This document shows positions 2 to 42,347 of a stretch of 45,029 nt of DNA, one piece after another. The DNA is from Acidobacteriota bacterium (lineage in GTDB: Bacteria > Acidobacteriota > Vicinamibacteria > Vicinamibacterales > CAVVIG01), in the NCBI GenBank assembly GCA_046734915.1, contig JBKPSC010000081.1, positions 1 through 45,029 on the forward strand, written 5' to 3'. A program made the translations under genes and the position numbers. Every line of letters starts with the position of its first letter. Position 1 is the first letter of the stretch. Below the pieces are notes generated by a model, which was given only the letters and a program-made list of their open reading frames with translations, was not told the origin of the DNA and searched no databases.

Positions 2-613
2 CGTCACACAACGATCTCGAGGCAAGCGTTCCTGGCGATGCTCGGTCGCACGATGCCGTCGAACGCCGCGCCCTGGGATGCGCTGTGGTGGCCGCCGCGC
101 ATCCACTTCGCGTTGTTCGTGCACCGCGTCGAGGACGTCGAGCCGGGCCTGTACCTGCTGGCCCGGAGTACATCAGCGGAACCACGACTTCGGTCGTCGA
201 TCACCCATGCATTCGACTGGGCCGCGGCCGATGACGATCTCCCGCTCTGGCGCCTCGAGGCTGGCGATCACCGTCGGCTTGCCCAGCGCGTCAGCTGCGA
301 TCAGGAGATTGCGGCTGACGGCTGCTTCAGCCTCGCGATGCTGGCCGACTTCGACGCCAGCCTGCAGGACCACGGCGCCGCGTTCTATCGGCATCTGTTC
401 TGGGAAACCGGTGTGATTGGCCAGGTTCTCTACCTCGAGGCCGAGGCCGCCGGCATCCGTAGCACCGGCATCGGCTGCTTCTACGACGATGCCGTGCACG
501 ATCTGCTGGGCATCCGCGATCACTCGTTCCAAAGCCTGTATCACTTCACCGTTGGCGGGGCAGTCGACGATGCTCGGCTCACGACGGAGCCGGGGTATGA
601 GTGGGAGCGTTAA
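2..613 (+). CDS. SagB-type dehydrogenase / nitroreductase-fold protein, C-terminal part (5' end lies outside the window)
   Basis: The frame is open from base 2, with no stop before the first ATG at 38. Stop TAA is at 611-613. The C-terminal sequence FYRHLFWETGVIGQVLYLEAEAAGIRSTGIGCFYDD...LYHFTVGG looks like the FMN nitroreductase/SagB-ThcOx fold. Confidence 0.7.
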   Translation, partial: RHTTISRQAFLAMLGRTMPSNAAPWDALWWPPRIHFALFVHRVEDVEPGLYLLARSTSAEPRLRSSITHAFDWAAADDDLPLWRLEAGDHRRLAQRVSCDQEIAADGCFSLAMLADFDASLQDHGAAFYRHLFWETGVIGQVLYLEAEAAGIRSTGIGCFYDDAVHDLLGIRDHSFQSLYHFTVGGAVDDARLTTEPGYEWER

Positions 614-718
614 AGGCAGGGAGGGCAGGGGAGGCGGGGTAGGCAGGAAGGAAGCAAAGTCCCTCCGGCCTTCCCCGTCCTCACCACCTTCCCCGCCTTC
701 CCTGCCCTCCCTGCCTTT
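612..718. repeat. Long imperfect palindrome (element A): G-rich arm aaaggcagggagggcaggggaggcgggg, C-rich arm ccccgccttccctgccctccctgccttt
   Basis: Bases 612-630 are the exact reverse complement of 700-718 (19 nt). This is followed by a G.T position and 8 more complementary bases. The element fills the spacer between two convergent stop codons (611-613 and 723-725). Confidence 0.85.
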
Positions 719-722
719 ACAG

Positions 723-1253
723 TTACCGAGCCTCGCACGACGCGGCGAGCATCTTGATGTGCTCGACGTCGACGCGGCGCACCGACACCGGAGCTTCCTT
801 GTCGTCGTTCTTCCCCGGTACAACCGACAGATTCGGGATGCGAGCCTTGAGCGAGCGGCCGTCCGACTTGACGCTCATCTCCGTCCACGCGTCCTTGCGA
901 TCCAGCTTGATCTCGCCTGGCTTCACCGAACCACTCAGATCGCCCTCGATCTCGACGCGATGGCCCACATGCTGGCGGAGATCGTCATTGCCGGTCAGCC
1001 AATAGAACACGGTTCGATACTCTCCCGTCGTTCCGACGCTGCTCGGCGCCGAACCGCCGGACGACGACACGATAGCCGGCTGTTCAGGCGCGTTCGTGAG
1101 CAGATAGGGATTGCCATCTCCTTCAGCTTTAACCAGGCAGCCCGACAATTTCACGCTTTCCGCGCCGGCGGCAACGCCAGCTGGGGCGCTCGCCAACGCA
1201 CATGTCAGGCCCAGAATTGCCACATTGCGGTAGAGCGCGACTTTCGTGCTCAT
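723..1253 (-). CDS. Secreted hypothetical protein (176 aa)
   Basis: ATG at 1253 is preceded by GGAGGA (revcomp of 1257-1262). The N-terminus MSTKVALYRNVAILGLTCALASAPAGVAAG looks like a signal peptide. No family recognised. The longer ORF to 1304 lacks an SD. Confidence 0.6.
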   Translation of the reverse strand: MSTKVALYRNVAILGLTCALASAPAGVAAGAESVKLSGCLVKAEGDGNPYLLTNAPEQPAIVSSSGGSAPSSVGTTGEYRTVFYWLTGNDDLRQHVGHRVEIEGDLSGSVKPGEIKLDRKDAWTEMSVKSDGRSLKARIPNLSVVPGKNDDKEAPVSVRRVDVEHIKMLAASCEAR

Positions 1254-2503: not shown

Positions 2504-2523
2504 GCGATCAGATTGGAACGTTG

Positions 2524-3603
2524 ATGGATGCCATGAATCGTCGGGAAGCCATCGAGCGAATCGCGGGCCTCGGCGCCGGCGCGCTGACCGCGCTGTCCGG
2601 CGGGAGCGGCGTGGCAATCCGGGCGCAACAGACGGCCGTTCAGCCCGTGCCGCCGCCATCCAACCCGAGGTTCCCGAATCCGCCGACATGGGAGAAGGAG
2701 CTCCGGGAGCTCGCGCCAAACATCTACGGCTACTTCCAGGGCGGCGGTCCTGGACGGAACAACGTCAGCATCTCCGACGCCGGCGTCATCGTCGGCGACA
2801 GCAGCGTGATGGTCATCGATACAACCACCGCGCCGATGCACGCGAAGGATTTCGTCGCCGCCATCCGCAAGGTGACCGACAAGCCGTTCCGCCATGTGAT
2901 CAACACGCACCACCATGGCGATCACATCAACGGCAATCAGTTCTTCGAAGGGGCCGAGATCGTCGGCCATCCGTACTGCCGCGATGAAGTCCTGAAGGTC
3001 GTCAACGCCGGTGGGCCCGCGCTCTGGGCCAGGCGTGAAGGCTGGGCCGATGGGACGGAGCCACGAAAGATCCTGCCGCCAACCACGACGTTCGATGGCA
3101 AGATGACCTACTACTACGGGAAGACGGTCGTCGAAGTGTTTCCGATGCTTCCGGCGCATACCTACGGCGATCTGGTCGTCTACCTGCCGCAGCACCGCAT
3201 CCTGTTCGCGGGCGACATCGCGTTTTTCTACGTCGCGCCGTTCTGCCAGAACGCGCACCCCAGCAACTGGATCGAGATCTGCGACAAGATTGAACAGCTG
3301 CCGGTCGACCGCATCGTGCCGGGCCACGGTCCGCTCGGTGGCAAGGCGGAGCTCGCGGAGATGCGCGGCTATCTGGCCCTGCTCAAGAGCGAAGCGCGCC
3401 GGAGGTACGACGCCCGGCTGGGCGCGGGCACCGCCGCCGCCGATATCAGCCTGGGCAAGTACGACAACTGGATCGGCCCTGAGCGGATCATCATGGACAC
3501 GCAGCGCTTCTATCTCGAGTTTGCCGGGAAGCTGACGCCAGACGTCGATGCTGAAGGAATCCGGCAGGCGACCGAGGAATACACTGCCGCGCGGCGCCGC
3601 TAA
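2524..3603 (+). CDS. MBL-fold metallo-hydrolase with Tat-like leader
   Basis: ATG at 2524 lies 20 nt after the previous stop. INTHHHGDHINGN is the HxHxDH motif. The N-terminus MNRREAIERIAGLGAGAL is Tat-like. Confidence 0.85.
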   Translation: MDAMNRREAIERIAGLGAGALTALSGGSGVAIRAQQTAVQPVPPPSNPRFPNPPTWEKELRELAPNIYGYFQGGGPGRNNVSISDAGVIVGDSSVMVIDTTTAPMHAKDFVAAIRKVTDKPFRHVINTHHHGDHINGNQFFEGAEIVGHPYCRDEVLKVVNAGGPALWARREGWADGTEPRKILPPTTTFDGKMTYYYGKTVVEVFPMLPAHTYGDLVVYLPQHRILFAGDIAFFYVAPFCQNAHPSNWIEICDKIEQLPVDRIVPGHGPLGGKAELAEMRGYLALLKSEARRRYDARLGAGTAAADISLGKYDNWIGPERIIMDTQRFYLEFAGKLTPDVDAEGIRQATEEYTAARRR

Positions 3604-3605
3604 TC

Positions 3606-6374: not shown

Positions 6375-7145
6375 ATGAAGAGCTACCTGCACCCGTCCCA
6401 ACGAGTCGCCCTCGCCCTGGCCGCCGTACTCGCCTGGCCGGCCGCGTCCTACGCCCAGGTCAAGGTGATCATCTCGGGCGGCTTTTCAGCCGCCTACCGG
6501 GAGCTGCTCCCGGCCTTCGAAAAAACCGGCACGACTGTAACCACGACGTCCGGCGGTTCGGTCGGCAGCGGCCCCAATACCATCGGCGGCCAGCTCCGCC
6601 GCGGTGTGCCGGCCGATGTCGTGATCCTTGCCAGGGAAGGCCTGAGTGAGCTCATCGCCGAGGGCCGCATCGCCCCGGGAACAGACGTCGACCTGGCCCG
6701 CTCGGTCATCGGCATGGTGGTGCGTGCCGGGGCGCCGAAGCCAGATATCAGCACAGTAGACGGTTTGAAGCAGGTGCTGGTTCGCGCCAAGTCGGTTGCG
6801 ATGTCGAGCAGCACGAGCGGCGTCTACCTCACGACCAAGTTGTTTCCGCGGCTGGGCATCGCCGACGAGATGGCCAAGAAGAGCCTCATGACGGGCGCTG
6901 CCGCGGTGGGCAAGGGAGAAGCGGAGGTCGGGCTGCAACAGGTGAGCGAGCTGCTGCCGATTGAAGGAGTGACATACGTCGGGACGATCCCGGAGGAAGT
7001 TCAGTACGTGACGACGTACGCCGCAGCGGTCGTGGCCGGATCGAGCCAGGTCGAGGCGGGCAGGCGCCTAATCGCGCACCTGTCGGCCGAATCCGCGGGC
7101 CCGGCAATCAAGAAGAGTGGAATGGAACCGGCAAAACGCAAATAG
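6375..7145 (+). CDS. Periplasmic substrate-binding protein, ModA-like (orphan, no adjacent permease)
   Basis: ATG at 6375. Signal peptide MKSYLHPSQRVALALAAVLAWPAASYAQ. The layout VKVIISGGFSAAY...GVPADVVILA resembles a molybdate/anion-binding PBP. Confidence 0.7.
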   Translation: MKSYLHPSQRVALALAAVLAWPAASYAQVKVIISGGFSAAYRELLPAFEKTGTTVTTTSGGSVGSGPNTIGGQLRRGVPADVVILAREGLSELIAEGRIAPGTDVDLARSVIGMVVRAGAPKPDISTVDGLKQVLVRAKSVAMSSSTSGVYLTTKLFPRLGIADEMAKKSLMTGAAAVGKGEAEVGLQQVSELLPIEGVTYVGTIPEEVQYVTTYAAAVVAGSSQVEAGRRLIAHLSAESAGPAIKKSGMEPAKRK

Positions 7146-7151
7146 AACTCT

Positions 7152-7240
7152 GAGGTTCACAGGTTCACGGTGCACTGGTTCACGCTTGCTGCGGGCTCCC
7201 CGAACCCGTGCATCTGTGAACCCGTGCACCTGTGAACCTC
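7152..7240. repeat. Imperfect palindrome (element B) built from GGTTCAC/GGTGCAC units
   Basis: gaggttcacaggt at 7152-7164 is the reverse complement of 7228-7240. Both arms are tandem ggttcac(a/g)/gtgcac units. It lies between convergent stops at 7145 and 7252. Confidence 0.8.
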
Positions 7241-8178: not shown

Positions 8179-10160
8179 CCCAATTTCTCGAGCTGTGCGT
8201 CCAGCAGCTTCTTGATTGCCGGCTGCGCGTCGCTGACAATGCGCGACGACACGCTGCTGGCGAGGTAGCGCAACCCGCTCGCGGCCTTGTCGAGCGTGCC
8301 CACCTCGACGTGCCTGAACGCCGAGACGTACTGGTTGACGAGCGACTGGCGGTGCGCGGTCGCCTCGGCCGATGCCACGAACGCCGAGTCCTTGAGGGTC
8401 ACGAGCGCCGTCTTCAGCGCGCCCCAGCCCAGGTCGATGACGATCGGCTTCACTTGCATGAGGTCGCCGGTAATCTGCGTCAGTCCGGCAACCTGTTGAA
8501 CGAAGTAGTCCTTGTCGAATCCGTCCGGGCCGGCTTCGGTGTCGACCTGTGCGTAGGTCTGTGTCCAGCCGCCCGGCCAGTCGCCGGCCAGGCCGATGCC
8601 TGGCAGCTTGAGGGAACGGCCGCGGTTCATCGGGCTCTTCACCGCGCCCATGAAGCCGCCGTTGACGCCAGGTCCGGTGTTCATCCCCGACTTGACGTCG
8701 ACCCTCGGCCAGCGATTGTCGGTCGCCGCCCGCGCGATCGTCTCAATGAGCCAGATGTTGTTGTTGTGCACGTCCATCAGGCTGGTGATGACGCCGCCGT
8801 CCTCGGGCCGCTCGCTCGAATAGACGTACTGATTGCCGCCGGGACCGGTTTCGATCGTCTGTCGGCCGCCCATGTGCTCCATACCGAGCGTCGCCACGAG
8901 CGGCTTCACCCGATCCGGATGGACGTGGTAGTAGTCGAACTCTTCCCAGCTGCCCTCGCCGCCGGGCATGAAGTGCCGGCAATCGAAGTAGCAGGCGAGC
9001 GTGCGCGGCCGCTGCGCGCGCGGGATCTTGTTGAAGTACGCCATGATGCCGAGCAGACCGAACGCGCCGTTCTCCTCGATCATCGACATCGCATCGGTGT
9101 GGGTGGCCAGCAACAGTTGTTCGTCCTGAGGCGTGCCGTAGTTTTTCCCCGGCACGTAGGCGATGAACGCCTTGGCCGAGTCGCGCTGGAAGCGGGCGGT
9201 CAACGTGAGCGTCGCGTTCTTGCCGGCCTTCGCGTCCGCCAGAACCTTCGCGCCGTTGACCCGATCGAGCGTCAGCGTCGGGCAGTTAATGTACTTGGCG
9301 CCGACCCCGGCGCGGCCGTCGGCCGTGTAAACGCTGCGCTGGGTGAGGCCAAAGGCTGCGCCCGGCGAAAGGTCATAGACGATGACGATGCCTGCGGCGC
9401 GTGACTTGAGGCCGATCGACGCGAAGCCGCCCACCTGGCTCCAGACCCAGCGCGATTGGTAAGAGTTGGTGACGTTGGCCGGCGGCGGCGTGAAGAACGG
9501 CGCCCACTTGCCTGGCGATCGCCATTCGTAGTCGGTGAGCGTGTAGTTGTCGAGGAACGAGTTCGAATACGGCGGCGCCGGTTGCGGCGCCGTCTGGAAC
9601 ACCAGAATCTTGCCGGCGATGTCCGCCGCCGCCGGTGGCCGCGCCGGATCGTAGAAGATCATCGGCGCGGTGATCCCCTCGGGCGGCGTCGATCCCGAGG
9701 TCATCCCGTACGACGCGACGACCGGCACCGGCGTCCCGTCGGTGACAAGCTTCTCGACCGCGACTCCCGAGTTGTGGATGTGCGCCTTTCGATCCGGCCA
9801 GTCGTCGACGATGTAGTGGTCATAGGAGATGTCGACCGAGTCGAAATCGACGCCGCCGAATTCGGGAATCTTCGCGATGACGTAATCCGTGAACTTCTTC
9901 CAGCCGGTGCTGCCGGCATAGGTAGGGCCGGCCTGGGCCTTGAACAGATGCCACTCGCGCGCCTGCTGGGGCGTGATCATGAACGCCGGATTGATCCTGG
10001 AAAGCGCGCCGCCGGCGCCGCCGACGGCCGAGCTGCCAGCGCGACTGCTCTGTGCCCAGAGCGGGCGCCGCGTCAGTACCGTGCCAGCCGCAACGCCTGC
10101 CGCCGTCTTGAGAAATGTCCTCCGGGAAGACCTGCCCGAGCCGCTTCGAGATTTGCTCAT
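8175..10160 (-). CDS. Tat-exported 661-aa protein of unknown function (possible PA-domain / M28-like fold)
   Basis: Near-consensus Tat motif SRRTFLKTAAG. It is a long ORF and the only frame here without Arg/Pro-rich shadow composition. LLLATHTDAMSMIEENGAFG loosely recalls the HxD...(D/E)N.SG pattern of M28 peptidases. Confidence 0.75.
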   Translation of the reverse strand: MSKSRSGSGRSSRRTFLKTAAGVAAGTVLTRRPLWAQSSRAGSSAVGGAGGALSRINPAFMITPQQAREWHLFKAQAGPTYAGSTGWKKFTDYVIAKIPEFGGVDFDSVDISYDHYIVDDWPDRKAHIHNSGVAVEKLVTDGTPVPVVASYGMTSGSTPPEGITAPMIFYDPARPPAAADIAGKILVFQTAPQPAPPYSNSFLDNYTLTDYEWRSPGKWAPFFTPPPANVTNSYQSRWVWSQVGGFASIGLKSRAAGIVIVYDLSPGAAFGLTQRSVYTADGRAGVGAKYINCPTLTLDRVNGAKVLADAKAGKNATLTLTARFQRDSAKAFIAYVPGKNYGTPQDEQLLLATHTDAMSMIEENGAFGLLGIMAYFNKIPRAQRPRTLACYFDCRHFMPGGEGSWEEFDYYHVHPDRVKPLVATLGMEHMGGRQTIETGPGGNQYVYSSERPEDGGVITSLMDVHNNNIWLIETIARAATDNRWPRVDVKSGMNTGPGVNGGFMGAVKSPMNRGRSLKLPGIGLAGDWPGGWTQTYAQVDTEAGPDGFDKDYFVQQVAGLTQITGDLMQVKPIVIDLGWGALKTALVTLKDSAFVASAEATAHRQSLVNQYVSAFRHVEVGTLDKAASGLRYLASSVSSRIVSDAQPAIKKLLDAQLEKLG

Positions 10161-11345: not shown

Positions 11346-12758
11346 CTAACTCTGAGGAACGCTGATGCCTTTCGGATCGGGGGCCGCGACGGACACGCCT
11401 ATGAAGACCGCGGTTGCGGCGGCGAGGGCAGGAATCCATGACGTGTCTTCGAACCCGCGGACGAAGGAGAGCCCGAAGTTCAGCGGAAAGCCAACGAGAA
11501 TGCTGGCCATCGCGGCCGCGCTAGTGGCGCGTTTCCAATAAAGCCCGCCGATCACCGCCGGCAGCAGGATGCCTGAACCCCACAGTGCCGTCTGGATCAG
11601 GCTGATGATCTGCGGCTGCCAATAGGCGATGACGAGCCCGGCCGCCCCCACGACCCACGTCAACCGTCGGGTCGCCTGTAGAAGGTTTGGGATCCCCTCC
11701 AGATCATCATGATCGGTGTAAAGAATCTCCGTCAGCAGCACCGCCACTGCGACCATGAGCATGGTGTTGGCCGTCGACATGATTGCGGCGAACAGGCCCA
11801 CGATCGCCAGACCGACGAGGCCCGACGGCAGTGACGTCTGAATCAGCCGATAGAGGACGTGATTCGACGGCGTGTCGGCCGGCAACGAGGCCGCTGCCAC
11901 CAGGCCGAGGACGACCGTCCCGGCAAAGAACAGCGCGTTGAGCACGCCCGAAAGGAGGAACGCCCGCTGTGCCGCCGGTGTGTCGATTGCAGCGTCAACG
12001 CGCTGCCAGTTCTCCATGGCCGGGAGGCCCAGCAACGCCCCGGTGCCGATCCCGAGCCACACGAAGGTCGGACCCGCGAACGTGTAGGGATTCGTGAGCG
12101 AGTCCCACCGACCTTGTGCCTGCAGCGCCTGAACGATGCCGCCGAACCCGCCGCTCCGGTAGACCTCGATGACGACGCCGGCGACGATCGTCACGACCAT
12201 CGCCCAGAAGTGCATGACGTCGGTGTACATGTCGCTGCGAATCCCCGCTCCGGCGGTCATCCAGATCACGAGCACTGCGGCGACGAGGCCGGCGAGACGC
12301 GCATCCCATCCGCCCCACACTTCGAGGATGCCGCCGAGTGCCTTGAACTGAGCAGCGAGATAGAAGAAATACAGAAAGGCGATCGCCGCGCCCACGGCGA
12401 TAGCCACGCTCCGCGAATAGCGACGGCGGAAGAACTCGGAGAACGACGATCGATCGCCTGACGGCGCAATTGATCGCACCCGGGCGGTGATGGCGGCCAT
12501 GACCGCGAACCCAATCATGACGCCCACGCCGTAGGTCAGGCCCAGGCCTATGCCCGAGTGCATGGTCGCTCCCGCGGTGCCAACGATGGTGCCGGCGCCG
12601 ACGTTGGTCGACACGACGGTGAACACCAGGAAGCCGAGACCGATGCTGTTCTTGGAGGTCAGCCAACCGGAGAGGTCCACGCGGCCGGCCCAGTACCGGT
12701 TGACGACCACGACACCCAGCAGATACGCGGCGATGACCGTTACGTCGAGCAGCGTCAC
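11346..12758 (-). CDS. Sodium:solute symporter (SSS) family transporter
   Basis: GTG at 12758. 470 aa and polytopic. AGAGIRSDMYTDVMHF resembles the SSS signature region. It lies 9 nt downstream of the ABC permease gene. Confidence 0.8.
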   Translation of the reverse strand: MTLLDVTVIAAYLLGVVVVNRYWAGRVDLSGWLTSKNSIGLGFLVFTVVSTNVGAGTIVGTAGATMHSGIGLGLTYGVGVMIGFAVMAAITARVRSIAPSGDRSSFSEFFRRRYSRSVAIAVGAAIAFLYFFYLAAQFKALGGILEVWGGWDARLAGLVAAVLVIWMTAGAGIRSDMYTDVMHFWAMVVTIVAGVVIEVYRSGGFGGIVQALQAQGRWDSLTNPYTFAGPTFVWLGIGTGALLGLPAMENWQRVDAAIDTPAAQRAFLLSGVLNALFFAGTVVLGLVAAASLPADTPSNHVLYRLIQTSLPSGLVGLAIVGLFAAIMSTANTMLMVAVAVLLTEILYTDHDDLEGIPNLLQATRRLTWVVGAAGLVIAYWQPQIISLIQTALWGSGILLPAVIGGLYWKRATSAAAMASILVGFPLNFGLSFVRGFEDTSWIPALAAATAVFIGVSVAAPDPKGISVPQS

Positions 12759-28437: not shown

Positions 28438-28461
28438 TGGCGTTCTAGGGTGCCGTGACCA

Positions 28462-29217: not shown

Positions 29218-29245
29218 ACCGGGAGTCTAGCAGACGAAAACTTTC

Positions 29246-29412: not shown

Positions 29413-31080
29413 TCACTGAGTCGTGGTGGTGGTGGTGGTTAGCTGCTGTGGCGATCGCAGTGGGACTTCCTGGACTGCCTCGTAGTCGACCTGTGACTTG
29501 TTGTAATCGAGGACAGCTTTGACTTCGTTGGTCCGCGCCTGCGCGAGGTCGCGCTGCGCCTGAAAGACGAAGAAGGTGGTCTGGATGCCGGCCGCCATTT
29601 TCTTCTCTTCAGCCTCGAGGCGGCGCTCCGCCAGCTCGCGGGCGGCTCTCGACGTGTCGACGCGTTGACGGTTGGTCTGCACCTGACGCGCCGCATCTCT
29701 GACTTGTGCCGCGACCTGGAGTTCCACATTGCGCAGTGAGGCCTGCGACTGCTGGTACTGCAGCCGCGCCTTCGCGAGGTTCGCTTCGGACGAACTGGTG
29801 CCGATGGGGTATCCGATGTTCACGCCAAACGACCAGGCCGGATAAGCGTTCGTGAAGACGTCGTTGATGACCGATCCAAACCCACGCTGCGAGAGGACGT
29901 TCCGTGCCGGGATCGACCCGCCGCTCAGCGAGGACAACGACAGCGGCTCGAGCCGTGTGCCACCCACGCCCACCAGGCCGTAGGACGCAACGGCGTTCAC
30001 CTCGGGCAGGACCTGATTGCGCAGGTAGCGGATGGTGATGTCGTCCTGCTGCAACCCGTTCTTCGCCTGGCGGACCTCGGAGCGGTTGGCCATCGCGCGC
30101 TGCACGGCGGCGTCGACGTCGAGCGCGACATCGGCGAAAGGCGCGGCGTCGCTCGGCTCGAGTGTCGTGGTCCAGAAGTCAGGCATGCTCGGGTCGAAGA
30201 TGAGCACGCGGAGCCGGTCTTCGGCCTGCTTGATGGCGGACTCGGCCACGATGACGGTCTCCTGATTGCGCGCCACTTCCGATTGCGCTTCGACGATGTC
30301 GATCGGCGCCATGGTGCCGATCTGGACGCGTTTCTCGTTGTCGCCGAGCAGCCGCCGGGCGAGATCGAGCGACTGACGCTGGACGGTCAGGTTGTCGATG
30401 GCGAACGCCAGGTCCCAGTACGCGTTCTTGACGTTGCGCGTGGTTTCCACTGTCGCCGCGCGCAAGTTGACGTCCGAGATCTCGCGAATCTTCTGGTTGA
30501 TCTGGAGCTCCTGTCTGACGTCATCGATCTTCCAGTTTCTCAGCAGCGGCTGGGTAACGTTGAGCGCCAGGTTCGATCGCAGCTGGGGATCGTAGTTGTT
30601 GAAGAAGTTCGTCGACGTCGATCGGTTGCCGTTCCACGACACGTTGTAGTTCGCGCCGGTCGGCAACCGCTGCTCGACGCCCAACCCGGTCTGGAAGAGT
30701 CCGTCGGTGACCTTCGTCTGGCCGCCGGAGAACGTGCTGGTGGCCGGGTTGGCGGTCGACGTGTTGAGAAGGCTGCTCGTGAGCGTGGGCGCCCAGGCCG
30801 CCCGCGTCTGCGCGATGCTCATGTCGTCAATCTGCGGGTTGAATCGCTCGATCTGGATGCCCAGGTTCTGCTCGAGCGCCAGCGCCACGGCGTCGTTGAC
30901 GGACAGGCGGCGGACCGGAGCAGATGTCTGCGAAGACTGCTGCTCGGCCGCGGCCGTCAGTTGAAGCGGTGCAATCGACGATGGGGTTTGGGCCGGCGCC
31001 GTGCGCGCGGTCAGGGTCAAGGCGGCGACAAGCGACAGTCGGGCCAGCACAGTCGAGTAACGCATTGCCAAGCGCTCCAT
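29413..31080 (-). CDS. TolC-family outer membrane efflux protein
   Basis: ATG at 31080 (or 31065) precedes the signal peptide MRYSTVLARLSLVAALTLTARTAPAQ. It has two repeated coiled-coil/beta-barrel halves with motifs such as LSVNDAVALALEQN. The longer ORF to 31236 approaches pyrE. Confidence 0.85.
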   Translation of the reverse strand: MERLAMRYSTVLARLSLVAALTLTARTAPAQTPSSIAPLQLTAAAEQQSSQTSAPVRRLSVNDAVALALEQNLGIQIERFNPQIDDMSIAQTRAAWAPTLTSSLLNTSTANPATSTFSGGQTKVTDGLFQTGLGVEQRLPTGANYNVSWNGNRSTSTNFFNNYDPQLRSNLALNVTQPLLRNWKIDDVRQELQINQKIREISDVNLRAATVETTRNVKNAYWDLAFAIDNLTVQRQSLDLARRLLGDNEKRVQIGTMAPIDIVEAQSEVARNQETVIVAESAIKQAEDRLRVLIFDPSMPDFWTTTLEPSDAAPFADVALDVDAAVQRAMANRSEVRQAKNGLQQDDITIRYLRNQVLPEVNAVASYGLVGVGGTRLEPLSLSSLSGGSIPARNVLSQRGFGSVINDVFTNAYPAWSFGVNIGYPIGTSSSEANLAKARLQYQQSQASLRNVELQVAAQVRDAARQVQTNRQRVDTSRAARELAERRLEAEEKKMAAGIQTTFFVFQAQRDLAQARTNEVKAVLDYNKSQVDYEAVQEVPLRSPQQLTTTTTTTQ

Positions 31081-31176
31081 CACAAAGATCCGGTGGTTAG
31101 TCTGTGTAGTAGACGGCCGGACGGCCAGATCGGTTCGGGTGTCGTCTAGGTATACTACCCAACTGCTTACGGTGAC

Positions 31177-31752
31177 ATGACCCGCGACGAATGGCTCGAC
31201 CTTTTCCGGCGCTCGGGCGCGCTGCTCGAAGGCCATTTCCTGTTGTCATCAGGCTTGCACAGCAGCGGCTATCTCCAATGTGCCCTGGTGCTCTCGCATC
31301 CGGCACACGCCGAGACGCTGGGGCGGGCCATTGCCGCCCGACTGCGCGGCCTGCGGCCGACGGTCATCCTCTCCCCGGCACTTGGCGGCGTCGTCATCGG
31401 CCACGAGGTCGCGCGGGCGCTCGGCGTGCGCGCGTTGTTCGCTGAGCGCCAGGATGGCGTCCTCACCCTGAGGCGCGGGTTCACCCTCAGCGAATCGGAC
31501 CGTGTGGTGGTGATCGAGGACGTGCTGACAACCGGGCGATCGACACGCGAAACAATGCAGGTCGCGAGCGCCGCGGGCGGCACCGTGGTCGGCGTTGGAT
31601 CAATCGTCGACCGGAGTAGCGGGGAGGCGAACCTGGGCGTGCCGTTCGTTTCGCTGTTCGACATGGCGTTGCCCACTTTCGAGCCTGGGGACTGCCCGCT
31701 CTGCCGGCAAGGCTCGGTCGCGATCAAGCCTGGATCACGGGGCGACGCCTGA
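31177..31752 (+). CDS. pyrE: Orotate phosphoribosyltransferase
   Basis: GHFLLSSGLHSSGYLQC and the PRPP loop VVVIEDVLTTGRST. Confidence 0.9.
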   Translation: MTRDEWLDLFRRSGALLEGHFLLSSGLHSSGYLQCALVLSHPAHAETLGRAIAARLRGLRPTVILSPALGGVVIGHEVARALGVRALFAERQDGVLTLRRGFTLSESDRVVVIEDVLTTGRSTRETMQVASAAGGTVVGVGSIVDRSSGEANLGVPFVSLFDMALPTFEPGDCPLCRQGSVAIKPGSRGDA

Positions 31753-31878
31753 AAATTGCGGAACGGCAGAATTGCAGGATTGCAGGAAGGAAAGGAAGGA
31801 AGGACGGATGGCGTGCTGCTGCAGTACCTTTCCACAATAGCCTTTCTGTAATCCTGCAATTCTGCAATCCTGCAATTT
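31753..31878. repeat. Long imperfect palindrome (element D) built from AATTGCAGG/ATTGCAGG units
   Basis: Arms 31753-31790 and 31841-31878 are complementary at 32 of 38 positions by my count. The loop contains a GGAA-rich run. The element starts right after the pyrE stop and ends 1 nt before the truA ATG. Confidence 0.85.
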
Positions 31879-31879
31879 G

Positions 31880-32701
31880 ATGCGTAAGTTCCGATTGACG
31901 CTGGCCTACGATGGTAGCGGGCTGGTCGGCTGGCAACGTCAGGCATCGGGCACGTCGGTGCAGGCCCTTCTGGAAGACGTCCTCGCCGTGCTTGACGGAC
32001 AGCCGGTTGCCGTCGAAGGCGCCGGACGGACCGATGCTGGTGTGCACGCGCTCGGTCAGGTCGCAAGCTTCAGCCTTGCGCGCGACATCGACCCGTCGAC
32101 GCTCGTTCGGGCGCTCAACTTTCACCTGCCTGACTCGGTGCGGGCCGTCGATGTGGTACCGGTCGACGAGGCTTTTCACGCCCGCTTCAGCGCGCGCGGC
32201 AAGCACTACCGGTATCACCTCTGGAACGGCGGTGCCGTGCCGCCGATGCTCAAGCGTTACGTGTGGCACGTGCCGCTGCCGGCACTCGATGAGTCCGCGA
32301 TGAACGAAGCCGCGCGGCTGCTCGAGGGCGACCACGACTTCGCCGCATTTCAGTCCGTCGGCACCGACGTGCCGACGACCAGGCGCGTGATCGCCGCATC
32401 GACCGTGCGCACGATCGCCGGTCCCGAGGCCGGCCTCATCGCCGGTCTCGAGGCGACGGCCGGTGCGCTCGTCGTCTACGACGTCAACGGCGATGGGTTT
32501 CTCCGCCACATGGTTCGATCGATCGTCGGGACCCTGGTCGAGATCGGTCAGGGGCGTCGCCCGCCGGACTGGATGAGGGCCGTACTGGAGTCAGGAGACC
32601 GGGCTCAGGCCGGACGCACCGCGCCGCCTGAAGGGCTCTTTCTCGTCGCCGTGCGCTACGAACCGCCGGCCGGAACGCTCACAGACCGCATGGTACAATA
32701 G
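31880..32701 (+). CDS. truA: tRNA pseudouridine(38-40) synthase
   Basis: LTLAYDGSGLVGWQRQ and GAGRTDAGVHALGQV (catalytic Asp motif). Confidence 0.9.
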   Translation: MRKFRLTLAYDGSGLVGWQRQASGTSVQALLEDVLAVLDGQPVAVEGAGRTDAGVHALGQVASFSLARDIDPSTLVRALNFHLPDSVRAVDVVPVDEAFHARFSARGKHYRYHLWNGGAVPPMLKRYVWHVPLPALDESAMNEAARLLEGDHDFAAFQSVGTDVPTTRRVIAASTVRTIAGPEAGLIAGLEATAGALVVYDVNGDGFLRHMVRSIVGTLVEIGQGRRPPDWMRAVLESGDRAQAGRTAPPEGLFLVAVRYEPPAGTLTDRMVQ

Positions 32702-32730
32702 CCGTTTTTCAGCGAGGGACGGCACAGAGC

Positions 32731-33522
32731 ATGTCGCTTGAGGAGCTGTTGGCGTTCATCCCGGCCGGATCTCCGGACGAGGCACTGGCGCGACAGGTCA
32801 ACTTCGAGCAGCTTCCGGCCCATGTCGCCATCATCATGGATGGCAACGGACGGTGGGCCGCGCGGCGGCATCTGCCCCGCGTCGAAGGACACCGTGCCGG
32901 CATCGACGCCGTGCGCGACGTCGTCGAGACCTCGGCCCGGCTCGGCATCGGGGTGCTGACGCTGTATGCGTTTTCAGTCGAGAACTGGAAGCGGCCGCCG
33001 GCTGAAGTCAACACGCTGATGCTGCTCCTGAAGCGCTACATCCGCTCCGAGCTGGACACACTCGATCGCAACAACATCCGTTTCCAGGTAATCGGCCGTC
33101 CCGACGCCCTGGCGCGCGACGTGCAGCGGGAGCTTGAAATCGGTATCGAGCGAACGGCCTCGAACACGGGAATGCTGTTCAACATCGCGCTGAACTACGG
33201 CGGAAGAACCGAGATCGTGGACGCCGTCCGGCGGGCGATGGCGTCCGGTCTGGCGCCGGCCGACCTCGATGAGCGCGCGTTCTCGAATCTGCTCTATACC
33301 GCCGGTCAGCCGGATCCCGATCTGCTCATCCGCACCAGCGGCGAGATGCGCGTCAGCAATTTCCTGCTGTGGCAGATTGCCTACGCCGAAATCTGGGTGA
33401 CCGAGACGCTGTGGCCAGACTTCCGGCGTCGCGATCTGCTGAACGCCGTCCTGGCGTATCAGAAGCGCGATCGCCGCTACGGCGGCATCAAGCCGTCGCC
33501 TGTGGCGCTCGGCGCCAAGTGA
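32731..33522 (+). CDS. uppS: Isoprenyl transferase (undecaprenyl diphosphate synthase)
   Basis: HVAIIMDGNGRWA, LTLYAFSVENWKRP and IRTSGEMRVSNFLLWQ. Confidence 0.92.
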   Translation: MSLEELLAFIPAGSPDEALARQVNFEQLPAHVAIIMDGNGRWAARRHLPRVEGHRAGIDAVRDVVETSARLGIGVLTLYAFSVENWKRPPAEVNTLMLLLKRYIRSELDTLDRNNIRFQVIGRPDALARDVQRELEIGIERTASNTGMLFNIALNYGGRTEIVDAVRRAMASGLAPADLDERAFSNLLYTAGQPDPDLLIRTSGEMRVSNFLLWQIAYAEIWVTETLWPDFRRRDLLNAVLAYQKRDRRYGGIKPSPVALGAK

Positions 33523-33547
33523 CTCGGACGCTGGGGACAGGCCGTCG

Positions 33548-34351
33548 ATGACGCGGGTGCTGAGCGGCGCCGCGCTGGTCCTCATCGCAGTCGCCGCCGT
33601 CTTCTTCGCGCCGCCCTGGCTGTTCTTGCTCATCGCCGAAGCCATCGTCGTGCTGTCGATCCGTGAATATCGAACACTGGCTTCCGGGCTAGGCGTGTCG
33701 GCTCCCTGGGCTCTGGCCGGCGGCGTGGCAATGTTGGTGTGCTTTGTCGTCGCAACGGAGCCGATGGACGGACCCTCGATGATCGTGCCGCTCCTCATGA
33801 CCGCGGTCGTGGCTTTTGGCATCCTGACCGTCGCGCAGTGGCAGGGGCAATCGAACCCACTCCCGGCGATCGCCGTTGCGCTGTTTCCCGCGCTCTACAT
33901 CGGGCTGCCGCTTGGCGCGCTCGTGGCGATCCGTCAGCGGCACGGGACCGAGGCGCTCTTCCTGCTGATGTTCACGATCATGGTCAGCGATACCTCGCAG
34001 TACTACACGGGCCGGTTGTTCGGCCGGATCCCGCTCGCGGCCGCCGTCTCGCCGAAGAAGACTGTCGAAGGCGCGGTCGGAGGCCTGATGATTGGAACGG
34101 CGGCGCTGGTCATCGCCGGACACTGGTGGCTCGTGCAACCCGTGCCCGTGGACCCGCTCACTCGCCTGTCTATCGGCATTATGGTGGTGATAGCTGGTAT
34201 TGCTGGCGACCTCTTCGAGTCGCTCTTGAAGCGTAGCGCGGGGGTCAAGGACAGCTCGACACTCATCCCTGGGCATGGGGGCGTCCTCGACCGGATTGAC
34301 GCGCTGCTGTTCGCGGCACCTGTATATTTCGTGGCGTTGAGATTCCTGTGA
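33548..34351 (+). CDS. cdsA: Phosphatidate cytidylyltransferase
   Basis: SPKKTVEGAVGG and GDLFESLLKRSAGVKDSSTLIPGHGGVLDRIDALLF. Confidence 0.9.
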   Translation: MTRVLSGAALVLIAVAAVFFAPPWLFLLIAEAIVVLSIREYRTLASGLGVSAPWALAGGVAMLVCFVVATEPMDGPSMIVPLLMTAVVAFGILTVAQWQGQSNPLPAIAVALFPALYIGLPLGALVAIRQRHGTEALFLLMFTIMVSDTSQYYTGRLFGRIPLAAAVSPKKTVEGAVGGLMIGTAALVIAGHWWLVQPVPVDPLTRLSIGIMVVIAGIAGDLFESLLKRSAGVKDSSTLIPGHGGVLDRIDALLFAAPVYFVALRFL

Positions 34352-35517
34352 AGCGCATCGCCATCGTCGGCGCGACGGGGTCGATCGGTCAGAGCGCGCT
34401 CGCCGTCGTCGATGCGCACGCCGATCGGCTGCAGGTCGTGGCCATGGCCGCTGGAGAGAACGTCGATCGGTTTGCCGATCAGGTGTCGCGGCATCGCCCG
34501 AGGCTGGCGGTAATGGGAACGGACGCCGCCCTCGCGCGTCTCAAGACACAGGGGGTTCCGGTGGCGACAGCTCTTGGCGCTCCCGGACGTGAGGGACTGG
34601 TTCAGGTGGCCTCGCACCCCGATGCCGAAGTAGTCCTGTTTGCGTCGTCCGGTACGGATGGGCTCGAGGCCGTTGCCGCGGCCATCGACTCGGGCAAGAC
34701 CATCGCCCTTGCCAACAAGGAAATCCTCGTCATGGCCGGCGGCATCGTCACCGAGGCCGCTCGCCGCCGTGGCGTTGCGGTGCTGCCGGTGGACAGCGAG
34801 CACAACGCGATTCATCAGTGCCTGGATGGCCGTCCGGCGAAGCACGTGAAGCGGTTGGTGCTGACCGCCTCGGGCGGACCCTTCCGCGGCCGTACTGCGG
34901 CGGAACTCGCGACCGTGACCGCCGACGATGCCCTGCGGCATCCGACGTGGCGGATGGGTCGCAAAATCACGATCGACTCGGCGACTCTGATGAACAAAGG
35001 GCTGGAAGTGATCGAAGCGCGATGGCTCTTCGACGTGGCCCCAGACCAGATCGACGTCGTCATCCACCCGCAGTCCGTCGTGCACTCGTTCATCGAGCTC
35101 GTCGACGGATCGGTCATCGCTCAGCTCGGCATCACGGACATGCGCCTGCCGATTCAGTACGCCCTTTCTTACCCTGAGCGCTGGCCGGCGCCGCTGCCGT
35201 CGCTCGATCTCGCGCGCGCCGGCACGCTCGAGTTCCATGCTCCGGACGCGGCGGCCTTTCCATGCCTGAGCCTGGGGTATCGCGCGCTACGCGGCGCGCC
35301 CAGCGAACCGGTCGTGCTCAATGCGGCGAACGAAATCGCCGTGGCGTTGTTCCTCGAGGGTCGTCTCGGATTCGGTGCCATCCCGCAGGTCATCGCGCAG
35401 ACCCTGGACGCGCATGCGACGGCGGCGGTGACGACGCTGGCAGAAGTGCGCACAGTCGATGCGTGGGCGCGGCAGTATGCCCGCGAGGTCTCCAGGGGAG
35501 TAGAATTGAAGGTCTGA
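34348..35517 (+). CDS. dxr: 1-deoxy-D-xylulose-5-phosphate reductoisomerase
   Basis: IAIVGATGSIGQSAL, LANKEILV, PVDSEHNAI and NKGLEVIEA. The GTG start overlaps the cdsA stop (GTGA). Confidence 0.92.
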   Translation: MKRIAIVGATGSIGQSALAVVDAHADRLQVVAMAAGENVDRFADQVSRHRPRLAVMGTDAALARLKTQGVPVATALGAPGREGLVQVASHPDAEVVLFASSGTDGLEAVAAAIDSGKTIALANKEILVMAGGIVTEAARRRGVAVLPVDSEHNAIHQCLDGRPAKHVKRLVLTASGGPFRGRTAAELATVTADDALRHPTWRMGRKITIDSATLMNKGLEVIEARWLFDVAPDQIDVVIHPQSVVHSFIELVDGSVIAQLGITDMRLPIQYALSYPERWPAPLPSLDLARAGTLEFHAPDAAAFPCLSLGYRALRGAPSEPVVLNAANEIAVALFLEGRLGFGAIPQVIAQTLDAHATAAVTTLAEVRTVDAWARQYAREVSRGVELKV

Positions 35518-35527
35518 GGATCCGCTT

Positions 35528-36850
35528 GTGACGACACTGCTTTCCTTTGCGTTCGTTCTCGGCGTTCTCGTCTTCATCCACGAGCTTGGCCATTTTCTCG
35601 CCGCCAAGCGGATCGGCATCAAGGTCCTCAAGTTCCAACTGGGCTTCAATCCCACCATCCTGAGCTTCAAGCGCGGCGACACTGAATACGGCATCGGGGC
35701 GCTGCCGCTCGGCGGTTACGTCAAGATGGCGGGTGAGAATCCTGACGAAGCGCGCAGCGGCCGATCGGACGAATTCCTGTCGCGGTCGAAGTGGGAGCGA
35801 TTCCAGGTGCTCTTCATGGGCCCGGCTATGAACCTGGCGCTGGCCTTCGTGCTCACCGCCGTCGTGTTGTATCAGGGCGCGCAGGTTCCCGTCTTCGAGG
35901 ATCAGCCCGTCGTTATCGGGTCCATCGCCGAGGGATCGCCGGCAGCGAAAGTGGACCTCCGCCGCGGCGATCGTATCGTGTCGGTGGCGCAGCGGTCGGT
36001 CGACACCTGGGAGCAGTTCTATCTCGAGGTCGCGACAAAGGTAAACCGCAGCATCGACCTGGGCGTGGTCCGCGATGGCGTCGAGCGCGCCATTAACGTG
36101 ACTCCCGTGCCCGCCAAGGACACGCGGTTTGAAGTCGGCGACGTTGGCGTGCTGCCTGACGTCCACCCGCACGTGCCGACGGTCAACCCCGGCGAGCCGG
36201 CCGATCGAGCCGGCGTCAAGCCAGGCGACGTGGTCGTGGCCGTAGACGGCAAGACGATCACCTTCCGCACGCAGCTGCGCGAGGCTATCGCCTCGCATCC
36301 GGGCCGCGAGATCACCTTGTCGGTGCTGCGCGACGGCAAGCCTTTGGACATCCGCGTGACGCCTGACAAGCGCGGCGACATCGGTTGGCTCGGCATCGGG
36401 CTGTCTGACGCGACCAAGAGCGTCAAGCCGGGTGTGGTCGAGGCCGTCCGCCTCAGTGTCGAGAAGAACGTTCAGTACGCCGGATTGATCTTTGAGACCG
36501 TCTGGGGACTGGTGACGCGGGAAACCAGTCCCAAGCAGTTGATGGGCCCGGTCGCCATCGCCCAGCTCTCGGGCGAATCGGCGCAGCTCGGATGGATTGC
36601 TCTTTTCAGCCTGATGGCATCAATCAGCCTGAACCTCGGCCTCCTGAATCTGCTTCCAATCCCCGTCCTCGACGGGGGACACATCCTCATCATGGCGCTC
36701 GAGGGCCTCGCCCGCCGCGACTTCAGCAGCCGAGTCAAGGAGAAGATGCTCGTCGCCGGCTTCGTCGTCCTGATGATGCTGATGGTCACCGTGATCTACA
36801 ACGATCTCACCCGAATCAGCTGGATCGAGCGGCTGATGCCCTGGCGCTGA
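35528..36850 (+). CDS. rseP: RIP (site-2) zinc metalloprotease
   Basis: HELGHFLAAK (HExxH), a PDZ region, and NLLPIPVLDGGH. Confidence 0.9.
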   Translation: MTTLLSFAFVLGVLVFIHELGHFLAAKRIGIKVLKFQLGFNPTILSFKRGDTEYGIGALPLGGYVKMAGENPDEARSGRSDEFLSRSKWERFQVLFMGPAMNLALAFVLTAVVLYQGAQVPVFEDQPVVIGSIAEGSPAAKVDLRRGDRIVSVAQRSVDTWEQFYLEVATKVNRSIDLGVVRDGVERAINVTPVPAKDTRFEVGDVGVLPDVHPHVPTVNPGEPADRAGVKPGDVVVAVDGKTITFRTQLREAIASHPGREITLSVLRDGKPLDIRVTPDKRGDIGWLGIGLSDATKSVKPGVVEAVRLSVEKNVQYAGLIFETVWGLVTRETSPKQLMGPVAIAQLSGESAQLGWIALFSLMASISLNLGLLNLLPIPVLDGGHILIMALEGLARRDFSSRVKEKMLVAGFVVLMMLMVTVIYNDLTRISWIERLMPWR

Positions 36851-36908
36851 CGGCACCTCGCACGCCCCGGTTTCTCGCGGCCTCCCTCTTCCAAAACGCC
36901 GCCGTCGC

Positions 36909-36926
36909 CTGGCGTTCTATTTGCAC
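36909..36926 (+). promoter_or_regulatory. Candidate sigma-54 (-24/-12) promoter CTGGCGT-TCTAT-TTGCAC
   Basis: GG at 36911-36912 and GC at 36923-36924 are separated by exactly 10 nt. The match to TGGCAC-N5-TTGCW is TGGC.. plus a full TTGCA. It lies about 25 nt upstream of the GTG at 36950, with GGAGG at 36941-36945. Confidence 0.45.
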
Positions 36927-36949
36927 GATGTTAATTTGTGGAGGTTGAA

Positions 36950-37819
36950 GTGAAACTCATCCGACTGACGGGTGTGCTTGGGCTGGTCCTTATTCTGGCG
37001 GCATCGGGCCCTGCCGCTGCGATCGCACAGACGCAGGCCGCCACGATGAGCGCATCCGACGTGCAGCGACTCGAAGATGCGATCGCCGACGCTCAGCGCG
37101 ACGTGGCCCAGGCGCCGACGCGCGATCTCGCGTCCCAACTGGAAGCGTCGCTCAACGACGCCCGCGACGATACGACATTTCTCAAGGTAAAAATCCGGCG
37201 CGGTGAAACGGTACCGCGCAGCGAGTATTTCGACCTCCGCGACCGCATCGACGACATTCGCACCAAGGCGCATGGAACCTCGACGACTCCCGCCGCCGGT
37301 TCGTCAACGTCAACCCGACACCACGGCGATGTGCCGGTGGGCACCGAATTCGACGTCAGGATCGTTAGCAGTCTCAGCTCTGGTACAGCGCAGGTCGAGG
37401 ACCGGTTCGAGGCGACGACGATGGTTGATTTGACAGAGGGCGAACGCGTCCTCGTGCCGGCTGGTTCGACGATGCGTGGCGTGATCAGCTCGGTCAACAA
37501 GGCTGGCCGAATCAATCGAAAGGGCAGTTTGACGCTGGCCTTCGACCAGATCACGGTGAACGGCAAGGATGCCCCGCTGAAGGCGACCGTGACGCAGGCT
37601 CTCGAGAGCGAAGGCGTCCGCGGTGAAGTCGGCAAGATCGGCGCCGGCGCGGGCGTCGGCGCGATCATCGGCGGGATCCTCGGCGGCTTCAAGGGGGCGA
37701 TGGCCGGCATCCTGATTGGTGGCGGCGGGACCATCGCGGCCACCGAAGGCAAGGACGTCGAATTGCCTGCTGGAACCGTGCTGCGAGTCAGGTTGGATTC
37801 GGCGCTCGATCTGAAGTAA
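36950..37819 (+). CDS. Secreted hypothetical protein with C-terminal glycine-zipper segment
   Basis: GTG at 36950 lies 4 nt after GGAGG. Signal peptide VKLIRLTGVLGLVLILAASGPAAAIAQ. The C-terminus GAGAGVGAIIGGILGGFKGAMAGILIGGGG is a glycine zipper. Confidence 0.7.
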   Translation: MKLIRLTGVLGLVLILAASGPAAAIAQTQAATMSASDVQRLEDAIADAQRDVAQAPTRDLASQLEASLNDARDDTTFLKVKIRRGETVPRSEYFDLRDRIDDIRTKAHGTSTTPAAGSSTSTRHHGDVPVGTEFDVRIVSSLSSGTAQVEDRFEATTMVDLTEGERVLVPAGSTMRGVISSVNKAGRINRKGSLTLAFDQITVNGKDAPLKATVTQALESEGVRGEVGKIGAGAGVGAIIGGILGGFKGAMAGILIGGGGTIAATEGKDVELPAGTVLRVRLDSALDLK

Positions 37820-37823
37820 GGGC

Positions 37824-37895
37824 GGGTAGGGCAGGTAAGGAGGCACGCCGTTGGTCGGCGTGCCTCTTTTTTGTGCTTCAGCCCTACCTGCCCTA
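37824..37895. repeat. Nested palindrome (element E): outer TAGGGCAGGTA / TACCTGCCCTA stem around an inner terminator
   Basis: 37827-37837 is the reverse complement of 37885-37895. The right arm overlaps the stop codon of the convergent TonB_C gene. Confidence 0.8.
37840..37872 (+). terminator. Canonical rho-independent terminator
   Basis: 11-bp GC-rich stem gaggcacgccg / cggcgtgcctc, loop ttggt, then tttttt at 37867-37872. Confidence 0.85.
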
Positions 37896-39210: not shown

Positions 39211-39217
39211 GAGCGCC

Positions 39218-41869: not shown

Positions 41870-41934
41870 GGCAGGTAGGGCAGGTGGGGCAGGGAGGCGG
41901 GGAGGGCGGGGCGGAGACGACCTTTCTGCCCTAC
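41870..41934. repeat. G-rich repeat arm (element F) of (A/G)GGGCAGG(T/G) units with a local 9-bp stem
   Basis: The sequence is ggcaggtagggcaggtggggcagggaggcggggagggcggggcgg. gtagggcag (41875-41883) pairs with ctgccctac (41926-41934). It starts right after the ADOP stop. Confidence 0.8.
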
Positions 41935-42310
41935 TGGCCCGCGGCCATCACCGCGAAGCGCGAAGTAGTCCACTACGGAAGCGCCAACCTTCCGATCCGA
42001 TCCTCATGCTCCGGATACGGTGCCGTATTGGCGGCGCTGAAGAATGACAGGACGATAGCCTTCCCTCGCGCTGTTCGATGAGGATTCGCTTCATCTCGGC
42101 GGATGCCGGCTTCGATATGAGCGCGCCGTTTTCAATCCTCTCGAGCGCTGGAGGCGGGCGCCGGCTTCGGAGCGGCCGCCCGCCCGACGCTCGTTGATTT
42201 CGTACGGGCTGAGCTAGTACGCGAAGACCTGCTCCGCTGGTGCCGCGATGAAGGCCATCCCGAGCGCACGAATCATGGCTGTGTCGTTTCGTTAACGGAA
42301 TACCTAACTG

Positions 42311-42347
42311 GCCTCCCTGCCCACCCCGCCCGTCCTGCCCTCCCCGC
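42311..42347. repeat. C-rich repeat arm (element G), reverse complement of part of element F
   Basis: The reverse complement of gcctccctgcccaccccgcccgtcctgccctccccgc contains ggtgggcagggaggc, compared with gtggggcagggaggc in F. It ends 8 nt before the convergent stop codon. Confidence 0.75.

Follow-up and report, generated by a model that had tools for sequence, protein, structure and literature searches.

How can one spacer after another in a bacterial genome carry a long hairpin of the same build when the sequences forming these hairpins are not the same? This question is raised by a 45,029-nt contig from a bacterium of the Acidobacteriota (JBKPSC010000081.1, assembly GCA_046734915.1; order Vicinamibacterales), which was analyzed in its full length and is called the window here. 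A preliminary description had listed six intergenic spacers with long inverted repeats built of short units in tandem, and all six were present at these places as judged by the sequence, Tandem Repeats Finder (TRF), and RNAfold. The best explanation, with a probability of about 0.65, is that these elements are hypervariable palindromic simple-sequence repeats with a long unit, or “stem-amplified hairpins.” Their architecture would be a mutational signature, and biologically they would act, if at all, as generic hairpins at gene ends. The preliminary description, the interpretation of which is supported in part, did not anticipate this main result, namely, that the tandem-unit arms are amplified stem copies of a small local hairpin.

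Five of the elements are single long hairpins with folding energies of −54 to −88 kcal/mol and z scores of −7.2 to −9.8 compared to dinucleotide shuffles. Element 1 (positions 611 to 719; −81 kcal/mol, z −8.4) is located between the convergent genes for a nitroreductase-like protein (stop codon 611-613) and a protein with a weak DUF5818 match (stop codon 723-725). Its arms, 611-652 and 678-719, are composed of 9-nt units of the GGGCAGG(N2) type, with TRF arrays of period 9 at 614-647 and 668-717. The TAA stop codon forms part of the stem, and each arm contains a G-quadruplex (G4) motif on its G-rich strand. Element 2 (7152 to 7240; −54 kcal/mol, z −7.4), between the convergent genes for a solute-binding protein and a dienelactone hydrolase, has a left arm (7152-7184) of about four GGTTCAC(N) units and a right arm (7202-7240) of 2.3 copies of the 16-nt unit GAACCCGTGCACCTGT. 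Element 3 (29247 to 29413; −87.6 kcal/mol, z −7.2) separates two genes on the minus strand, one for an outer-membrane efflux protein (OEP; stop codon 29413-29415) and one for a GT2 glycosyltransferase. Its outer arms (29247-29276 and 29384-29413) contain the 8-nt units GGATTGAG/CTCATTCC, and an inner hairpin is nested within them. Element 4 (31753 to 31878; −65.9 kcal/mol, z −9.8), between two genes on the plus strand, extends from the stop codon of a phosphoribosyltransferase (PRTase) gene (31750-31752) to the start of truA (31880), with 8-nt ATTGCAGG units in both arms (31753-31790 and 31841-31878). Element 5 (37819 to 37895; z −8.9) is again positioned between convergent genes, an unnamed gene (stop codon 37817-37819) and a TonB-like gene (stop codon 37893-37895). 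Its outer arms (37819-37840 and 37879-37895), with two GGGCAGGTA units each, surround a classical terminator hairpin (37837-37869) followed by T6, and this is the only locus with a classical U-tract, in agreement with the preliminary description.

Element 6 is a long-loop or split variant. Its left part (41870 to 41940) is a G-rich array of GGCAGG(N3) units (41870-41911) directly 3′ of the stop codon of an 883-amino-acid (aa) plus-strand gene, and its right part (42311 to 42347) is a C-rich array, G-rich when read on the minus strand, near the stop codon (42356-42358) of a minus-strand gene. The arrays had been described as a pair, and the right one is indeed complementary to 41870-41898 (29 nt, 83%), but they are split by 376 nt, and the left array has a short partner of its own at about 41921-41940. 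This local structure (41878-41940) has a z score of −3.4. Six-frame translation of the 376 nt between the arrays (41935-42310) gave no recognizable gene and no open reading frame (ORF) of more than 48 aa. In a relative, L056 (loci of relatives are numbered in this way), an analogous long-loop element at 3078-3471, absent from L049, surrounds part of a gene for a Ser/Thr protein kinase (...DIYSLGLVLYEMATG...).

Taken over the window, which has a GC content of 65%, the six loci supply the inverted repeats I1, I2, I4, I5/I9, I14 to I16, and I24 among 188 ranked ones with arms at most 600 nt apart. Both arms of loci 1 to 4 and 6 were recovered as TRF arrays with a period of 8 to 9 (or 16), at locus 5 only the left arm. 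When all spacers of the window were folded, z scores of −7 or below appeared only at loci 1 to 5, and locus 6 as a whole reached −3.4. The Pfam scan, which covered the ten genes flanking five loci, and the ORF list bore out the expected gene contexts, convergent at loci 1, 2, 5, and 6 and codirectional at loci 3 and 4. The statement that every locus uses a different unit was too strong: there are four unit types in the window, and the GGGCAGG(N2) unit is common to loci 1, 5, and 6.

The origin of the arms can be followed at orthologous sites. The spacer between the PRTase gene and truA, the orthologue of locus 4, is empty in L002, contains one 9-bp stem (CATCACGAA...TTCGTGATG) in L014, a relative of L002, and four copies per arm of CACGAAGG in L012, which is the sister of L014. 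At a convergent spacer, the junction of L002 reads GAGGTGA, L014 has a single 8-bp stem (TCAGAAGT/ACTTCTGA), and L012 has four to five copies of GAAGTGA per arm. The GAAGTGA unit is therefore a copy of sequence that already existed at this site, stop codon included. At locus 5, a single stem (GAGGGCAGG...CCTGCCCTC) is present in L070, the flanking protein of which is 75% identical to that of the window, and the number of GGGCAGGTA units per arm is two in the window, two to three in L068, four in L071 (97% identical protein), and five and four in L069. The length of the unit equals that of the single-copy stem in both 9-nt series. No target-site duplication was found in alignments of empty with filled sites, and the window's three loci with GGGCAGG-type units (1, 5, and 6) share no loop sequence, their loops being unrelated. 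These local series, the lack of target-site duplications, and the unrelated loops led to the rejection of transposition. A weaker hint comes from locus 4, where the PRTase gene and truA abut in L070 as ...CCATTGCTTGATG and the unit of the window begins with ATTGC. The gene order truA, uppS, cdsA, dxr, rseP, and the unnamed gene for a 293-aa protein, which is the 75% identical one, is kept in the window (31880-37819) and in L070 (4938-10867). Several neighbors in the truA-rseP run overlap by 4 nt, and tandem-unit hairpins arose at junctions of this region in some lineages despite these overlaps.

The elements turn over rapidly. Their presence and unit number differ among genomes that are 86% to 99% identical, and whole elements may be present in one and absent from the other of two genomes with 86% identity. 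Between L022 and L023, which are 98.9% identical, the difference is two additional units in the left and one in the right arm. Locus 4 has four units in the left arm in the window and two in the 92% identical relative. The two metagenome contigs L015 and L016, with about 92% DNA identity to positions 28374-36163 of the window, show that the window hairpin of locus 3 contains about 105 nt more, symmetrically at its apex, this central part being absent from the 92% relative. The units of the 3′ arm at this locus have also changed in concert: all three read CTCAATCC in the window and CTCATTCC in L015, with one pair broken per unit. In L013, (GATCGGG)13 stands opposite (CCTGATC)10, which results in one G·T in every unit, and arms may be unequal, as in L025 and L061, where the C-rich arm exceeds the other two- to threefold in length. 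A compensatory change, one A-T to G-C, was seen between the window and L069 in the inner terminator of locus 5. Alignment of orthologous spacers, as proposed in the preliminary description, thus revealed variation of the unit number and concerted change of single arms, while pair-by-pair compensatory change was not the pattern. This fits slippage and homogenization within arms plus some coupling between them, rather than compensatory evolution of individual pairs.

A possible sequence of events would begin with a small inverted repeat (stem length about 7 to 9 bp), which arises or already exists immediately 3′ of a stop codon. The stem segment would then be duplicated in tandem on both arms. 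As soon as at least two units are present, replication slippage within an arm may alter their number and homogenize their sequence, and out-of-register pairing or repair between the complementary arms may keep both arrays roughly matched. A deletion at the tip of the hairpin would remove the center. Such a process would be local and would not involve transposition, so that each spacer should obtain its own unit. The elements would persist where an insertion is tolerated, that is, 3′ of stop codons, and would fill much of the respective spacers. As generic hairpins, they may function as partial terminators or insulators or in protection of the 3′ end of an RNA.

The spacer of element 3 provides the broadest comparison. 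The OEP and GT2 genes are syntenic in most relatives, and the length of the spacer between them ranges from 9 to 238 nt in 44 of these. It contains no hairpin (9 to 12 nt), a simple hairpin (28 to 44 nt), or, in many relatives, a tandem-unit hairpin. The units are clade specific and include GGAATGAG, GGCAGGNNN, AGAGGGC, ATGGCTG, GGCTGGT, AGGAATC, CAACTCC, TTGGTCC, AATTAGG, and GATCGGG. The element is dispensable, and what recurs among the relatives is its position and architecture but not its sequence. The earlier view that the elements differ from REP/BIME (repetitive extragenic palindromic sequences and bacterial interspersed mosaic elements) or MITE (miniature inverted-repeat transposable element) families, which copy one sequence, was confirmed in this same spacer across about 45 relatives. 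Just 3′ of the element, 34 of the 44 spacers contain a TAnAnT-like box, which mostly ends 6 to 8 nt before the GTG start codon; the copy in the window is TAGACT (29224-29229, minus strand), with the same position in L001 to L066. No Shine-Dalgarno sequence is present at the GT2 start with this box. The box resembles a −10 element that would belong to a leaderless transcript, and if read in this way, an element at this site would separate two transcription units. The OEP protein has a poly-Thr tail at its C terminus, which is encoded by a perfect (GTG)5.7 tract adjoining element 3 (29423-29439; read as ACC in the coding strand). The version of this tract in L015 is different and shorter, so that the end of this gene contains another slippage-prone tract.

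With the OEP protein (encoded by 29413-31236) as the query, 14 loci were obtained from genome collections and 53 from metagenomes. The named relatives were mostly Acidobacteriota, chiefly Vicinamibacterales, and the best relative among the genomes was 60% identical in this protein. An exact-sequence look-up of the OEP protein gave no match, the start codon being probably called differently. Arrays of period 6 to 11 identified by TRF were paired when they were at most 450 nt apart; two earlier detectors had been dropped, one requiring exact periodicity, which recovered one of the six window loci, and a hairpin-first version, which labeled few hairpins as tandem. In 580 kb total, there were 56 inverted array pairs and 1 direct pair. 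After removal of redundancy, the window and its relatives (516 kb) contained 45 inverted pairs and 1 direct pair, compared to 0 in each of five dinucleotide shuffles, in line with the expectation that the elements are more frequent than by chance. Several of the contigs come from independent long-read assemblies, so that the architecture is no artifact of assembly. The architecture is lineage-wide in Vicinamibacterales-like acidobacteria and clearly nonrandom. The unit length of 8 to 9 nt given for the window is valid there, but the units of the relatives have mostly 7 nt and are diverse (AAAGTGG, AATTAGG, CAACTCC, CAAGTCT, TTCAGAG, GATCGGG, TCGTTCGGA, and CACGAAGGA, also ATTCTTG), with four unit types each in L013 and L022. 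The tendency to amplify looks genome specific: L012 is amplified at two spacers (1849-1914 and 6904-6991), its sister L014 has single stems of 8 to 9 bp, and in L013, a stretch of 21 kb contains four arrays that are very long, with as many as 13 units (1375-1603, 8264-8445, 9220-9329, and 11570-11795). A search of the window against Rfam 15 gave no match at the gathering score, and literature searches on Acidobacteria or Vicinamibacteria yielded nothing specific on such repeats in the library searched.

The position of the elements follows a rule. An element starts typically about 0 to 13 nt 3′ of the upstream stop codon, ends 0 to 35 nt before the next gene, and always adjoins at least one stop codon. 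The described location at stop codons, with the spacer filled by the element, is conserved among the relatives. All four convergent spacers of the window that are longer than 15 nt carry an element. The crude gene calls outside the window gave six “intragenic” and three “divergent” elements, which were mostly artifacts of ORF extension or due to missed genes (cases re-checked: L005 5299, L005 8437, L006 5052, and L022 3949). After this re-check, none of about 25 distinct spacer positions with an element was truly divergent, with divergent spacers making up about 19% of all spacers, and the true in-frame elements were those in truA of L022/L023 and in L009. Moreover, the elements have a polarity. 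Read on either strand, 37 of 47 elements have more G than C in the 5′ arm (P of about 1e-4), and this arm is the purine-rich one in 32 elements compared to 14, so that each adjoining stop codon is usually followed by a G-rich arm. The in-frame hairpin inside truA, at 6045-6121 of L022 (3195-3271 of L023), has 9-nt units of the GACACGGAG type and adds about 22 to 27 residues (TTVDTEDTGEEE...) compared to TruA of the window. A similar in-frame hairpin is located at 5113-5248 of L009 inside a 790-aa ORF. Both cases resemble the in-frame palindromic elements of Rickettsia.

Could the elements nevertheless be nonautonomous mobile elements of the MITE, REP, or REPIN type, with tandem arrays that serve as terminal inverted repeats by chance? 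Presence or absence of whole elements between 86% identical genomes, in-frame copies in coding sequences as in Rickettsia, and the recurrence of some unit types in different genomes would agree with mobility. However, the empty site already contains sequence that matches the unit, single-stem intermediates occupy the same sites, target-site duplications are missing, loops are unrelated among loci with a common unit, and units differ between loci of one genome. This reading is largely refuted and has hardly any probability left. On anatomical grounds, a MITE was rejected due to the missing target-site duplication and the derivation of the unit from local sequence, and REP/BIME/REPIN because the six loci have neither a shared sequence nor a GTAG or CGTC tag. 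Integron attC sites, CRISPR, retrons, and DNA uptake sequences were also rejected on their anatomy, as a conserved core, unique spacers, and a genome-wide consensus are all missing; concerning attC, syntenic housekeeping genes (truA, uppS-cdsA-dxr-rseP) flank the loci, the gene pairs at four loci are convergent, and no GTTRRRY core was seen on reading of the six loci. It is also very improbable that the arrays act as pairs of G-quadruplexes and i-motifs in DNA or RNA or as binding sites for a protein that recognizes repeats. Four of the five G4 motifs of the window are in arms of loci 1 and 6, GGGAATC repeats form G4 structures in vitro (PMC4692102), and a regular spacing of 7 to 9 nt would suit a multimeric binding protein. 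As a general account, G-quadruplexes fail because the units at four of the six window loci and in most elements of the relatives are not able to form them, and the complementary arm would compete by duplex formation. A single binding protein is opposed by the several unrelated units within one genome, which leave it no single recognition sequence.

An explanation by selection would be that the elements are bidirectional terminators or insulators that do not need a U-tract, or protectors of RNA 3′ ends, with unit amplification tuning the strength of the stem. Several observations point in this direction: the strict association with stop codons and the lack of elements in truly divergent spacers, the occupation of all four convergent window spacers of more than 15 nt, the near absence of canonical terminators from the window, the place of the OEP-GT2 element just upstream of the TAnAnT box between two probable transcription units, and the 5′ G-rich polarity, which is directional. 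In addition, repeats of Xanthomonas that are able to form G4 structures coincide with transcript starts or ends more often than control repeats do. Positions 1-45029 contain one convincing classical terminator (37837-37869) and essentially no matches to sigma-70-type promoters, and both counts are at or below the expectation from shuffles. On the other hand, the elements lack U-tracts, and the criteria of an intrinsic (Rho-independent) terminator, a short GC-rich stem with a 3- to 8-nt loop and a U-tract, apply only to the inner hairpin of locus 5. This classical terminator would end the plus-strand transcript before the right outer arm is made. Many relatives have the same spacer without the element (9 to 12 nt). 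Elements also occur at junctions where other genomes have abutting genes or a 4-nt overlap, such as cdsA/dxr (L022, 3949-4044), a junction in L050 (3267-3370) with a distance of 0 nt in eight relatives, and PRTase/truA (TGATG in L070). Strong termination at such coupled or abutting genes would be harmful. In codirectional spacers, the transcribed strand had the more stable fold in 15 cases and the opposite strand in 13 (Wilcoxon P = 0.97), and G·U pairs, 78 in the sense and 93 in the antisense strand, were not biased toward the transcribed strand. This indicates that the pairing is not tuned to the RNA actually made, and the concerted changes of one arm at locus 3 even break pairs. Roles as terminators, insulators, or stabilizers of 3′ ends, which had been proposed before, are possible, but selection for them as the cause of the architecture seems unlikely to us.

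Some points weigh against the interpretation as stem-amplified hairpins. The direction, growth instead of decay, is based on parsimony with one outgroup per series, and the gene calls outside the window are crude, relying on the GC content of third codon positions (GC3). In close relatives, a change in one arm tends to be accompanied by a change in the other, which requires either selection for pairing or a coupling mechanism. The 5′ G-rich polarity (37 of 47) and the rule that excludes divergent spacers are not obviously predicted by a neutral process. Finally, the unit types GGGCAGG, CAGGTTC, and CACnGAGG recur at unrelated loci and in unrelated clades, and these recurring types could reflect a sequence preference or a function. 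A combined scenario would be that a lineage-specific regime of replication and repair, or a dedicated factor, turns short hairpins behind stop codons into tandem-unit palindromes that are used as tunable, U-tract-independent two-way terminators or insulators in a genome nearly devoid of classical ones, with the 5′ G-rich polarity arising from selection during transcription. We consider this scenario to be quite unlikely.

Among described repeats, the closest counterparts are those of Xanthomonas, which has about 185 arrays of the heptamer GGGAATC per genome with 2 to 26 copies (Rehm et al. 2015, PLoS One, PMC4692102). Between 89% and 93% of these are intergenic and adjoin or overlap the upstream stop codon; most arrays are paired on opposite strands with the G-rich strand first, which gives 70 to 75 convergent pairs per genome, arrays are rare in divergent spacers, and corresponding spacers of two close species differ in the length and sequence of the arrays (PMC4692102). 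The acidobacterial elements are likewise tandem arrays of a 5- to 11-nt unit in at least two copies (TRF periods of 8 to 9 in the window, 7 to 9 in the relatives), and opposite-strand arrays are close together with the G-rich one first (45 inverted compared to 1 direct; 37 of 47). They are also intergenic at the upstream stop codon, and their unit number varies between close relatives. In contrast to the one genome-wide unit of Xanthomonas, several unrelated units of 7, 8, or 9 nt exist per genome here, many are not G-rich, and the series from a single to an amplified stem was not described there. The acidobacterial elements match the class of paired arrays in all defining features except a genome-wide consensus unit.

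Simple-sequence repeats of 5 to 11 nt with an excess of heptamers occur in scattered bacterial groups, and slippage of the polymerase was named as the cause (Mrazek, Guo and Shah 2007, as cited in PMC4679880). According to PMC4679880 and PMC4692102, this long-unit group includes the cyanobacterial STRR (short tandemly repeated repetitive) heptamers, GGGGA(T/C)T of Nostoc, and TAACTGA of Beggiatoaceae. Short-unit arrays mainly in noncoding DNA and a patchy phylogeny are common to these repeats and the elements, as is the tolerance of units with a multiple of three in coding sequences, exemplified here by the 9-nt in-frame cases. The long simple-sequence repeats are mostly direct and solitary, whereas nearly every intergenic array here has an inverted partner. 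Paired repeats are few in Nostoc, and in Beggiatoaceae the TAACTGA arrays are upstream of start codons, both unlike the acidobacterial elements.

REPs, which are spread by the RAYT transposase, and the related BIME and REPIN are extragenic palindromes that occur at the 3′ ends of genes and in convergent spacers, as are the elements of the window, but the latter originate locally and have no sequence in common among loci. All REPs copy one 20- to 40-nt sequence with a conserved GTAG or CGTC tag, and the proposed roles include transcription termination and mRNA stabilization (PMC3733652).

For high-GC bacteria, hairpin terminators poor in U-tracts have been proposed, and the stems of typical terminators have 5 to 14 bp. 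A stable GC-rich hairpin directly 3′ of a stop codon is a shared feature, and locus 5 contains a true terminator inside. The stems here are 25 to 90 bp long, do not have a U-tract, have tandem-repeat arms, are dispensable, and some are located within operons. New are the diversity of units in one genome, the series from single to amplified stems, the phylum-wide recurrence at gene junctions, and the rare in-frame copies.

Of the intergenic DNA in the window, about a quarter or even more belongs to these elements, and they recur at the same gene junctions across a major and poorly studied phylum of soil bacteria. They illustrate that long perfect hairpins may be built in place by stem amplification and without a mobile element, which provides a concrete story for the origin of the still unexplained paired heptamer repeats of Xanthomonas. 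If they are terminators or insulators, they would offer a natural graded series of hairpins for testing of transcript ends in high-GC bacteria without U-tract terminators. In practice, the elements may be used as hypervariable strain markers and are likely to cause trouble in assembly and PCR. Gene callers can also be misled, since ORFs run into elements and some elements are in frame inside genes.

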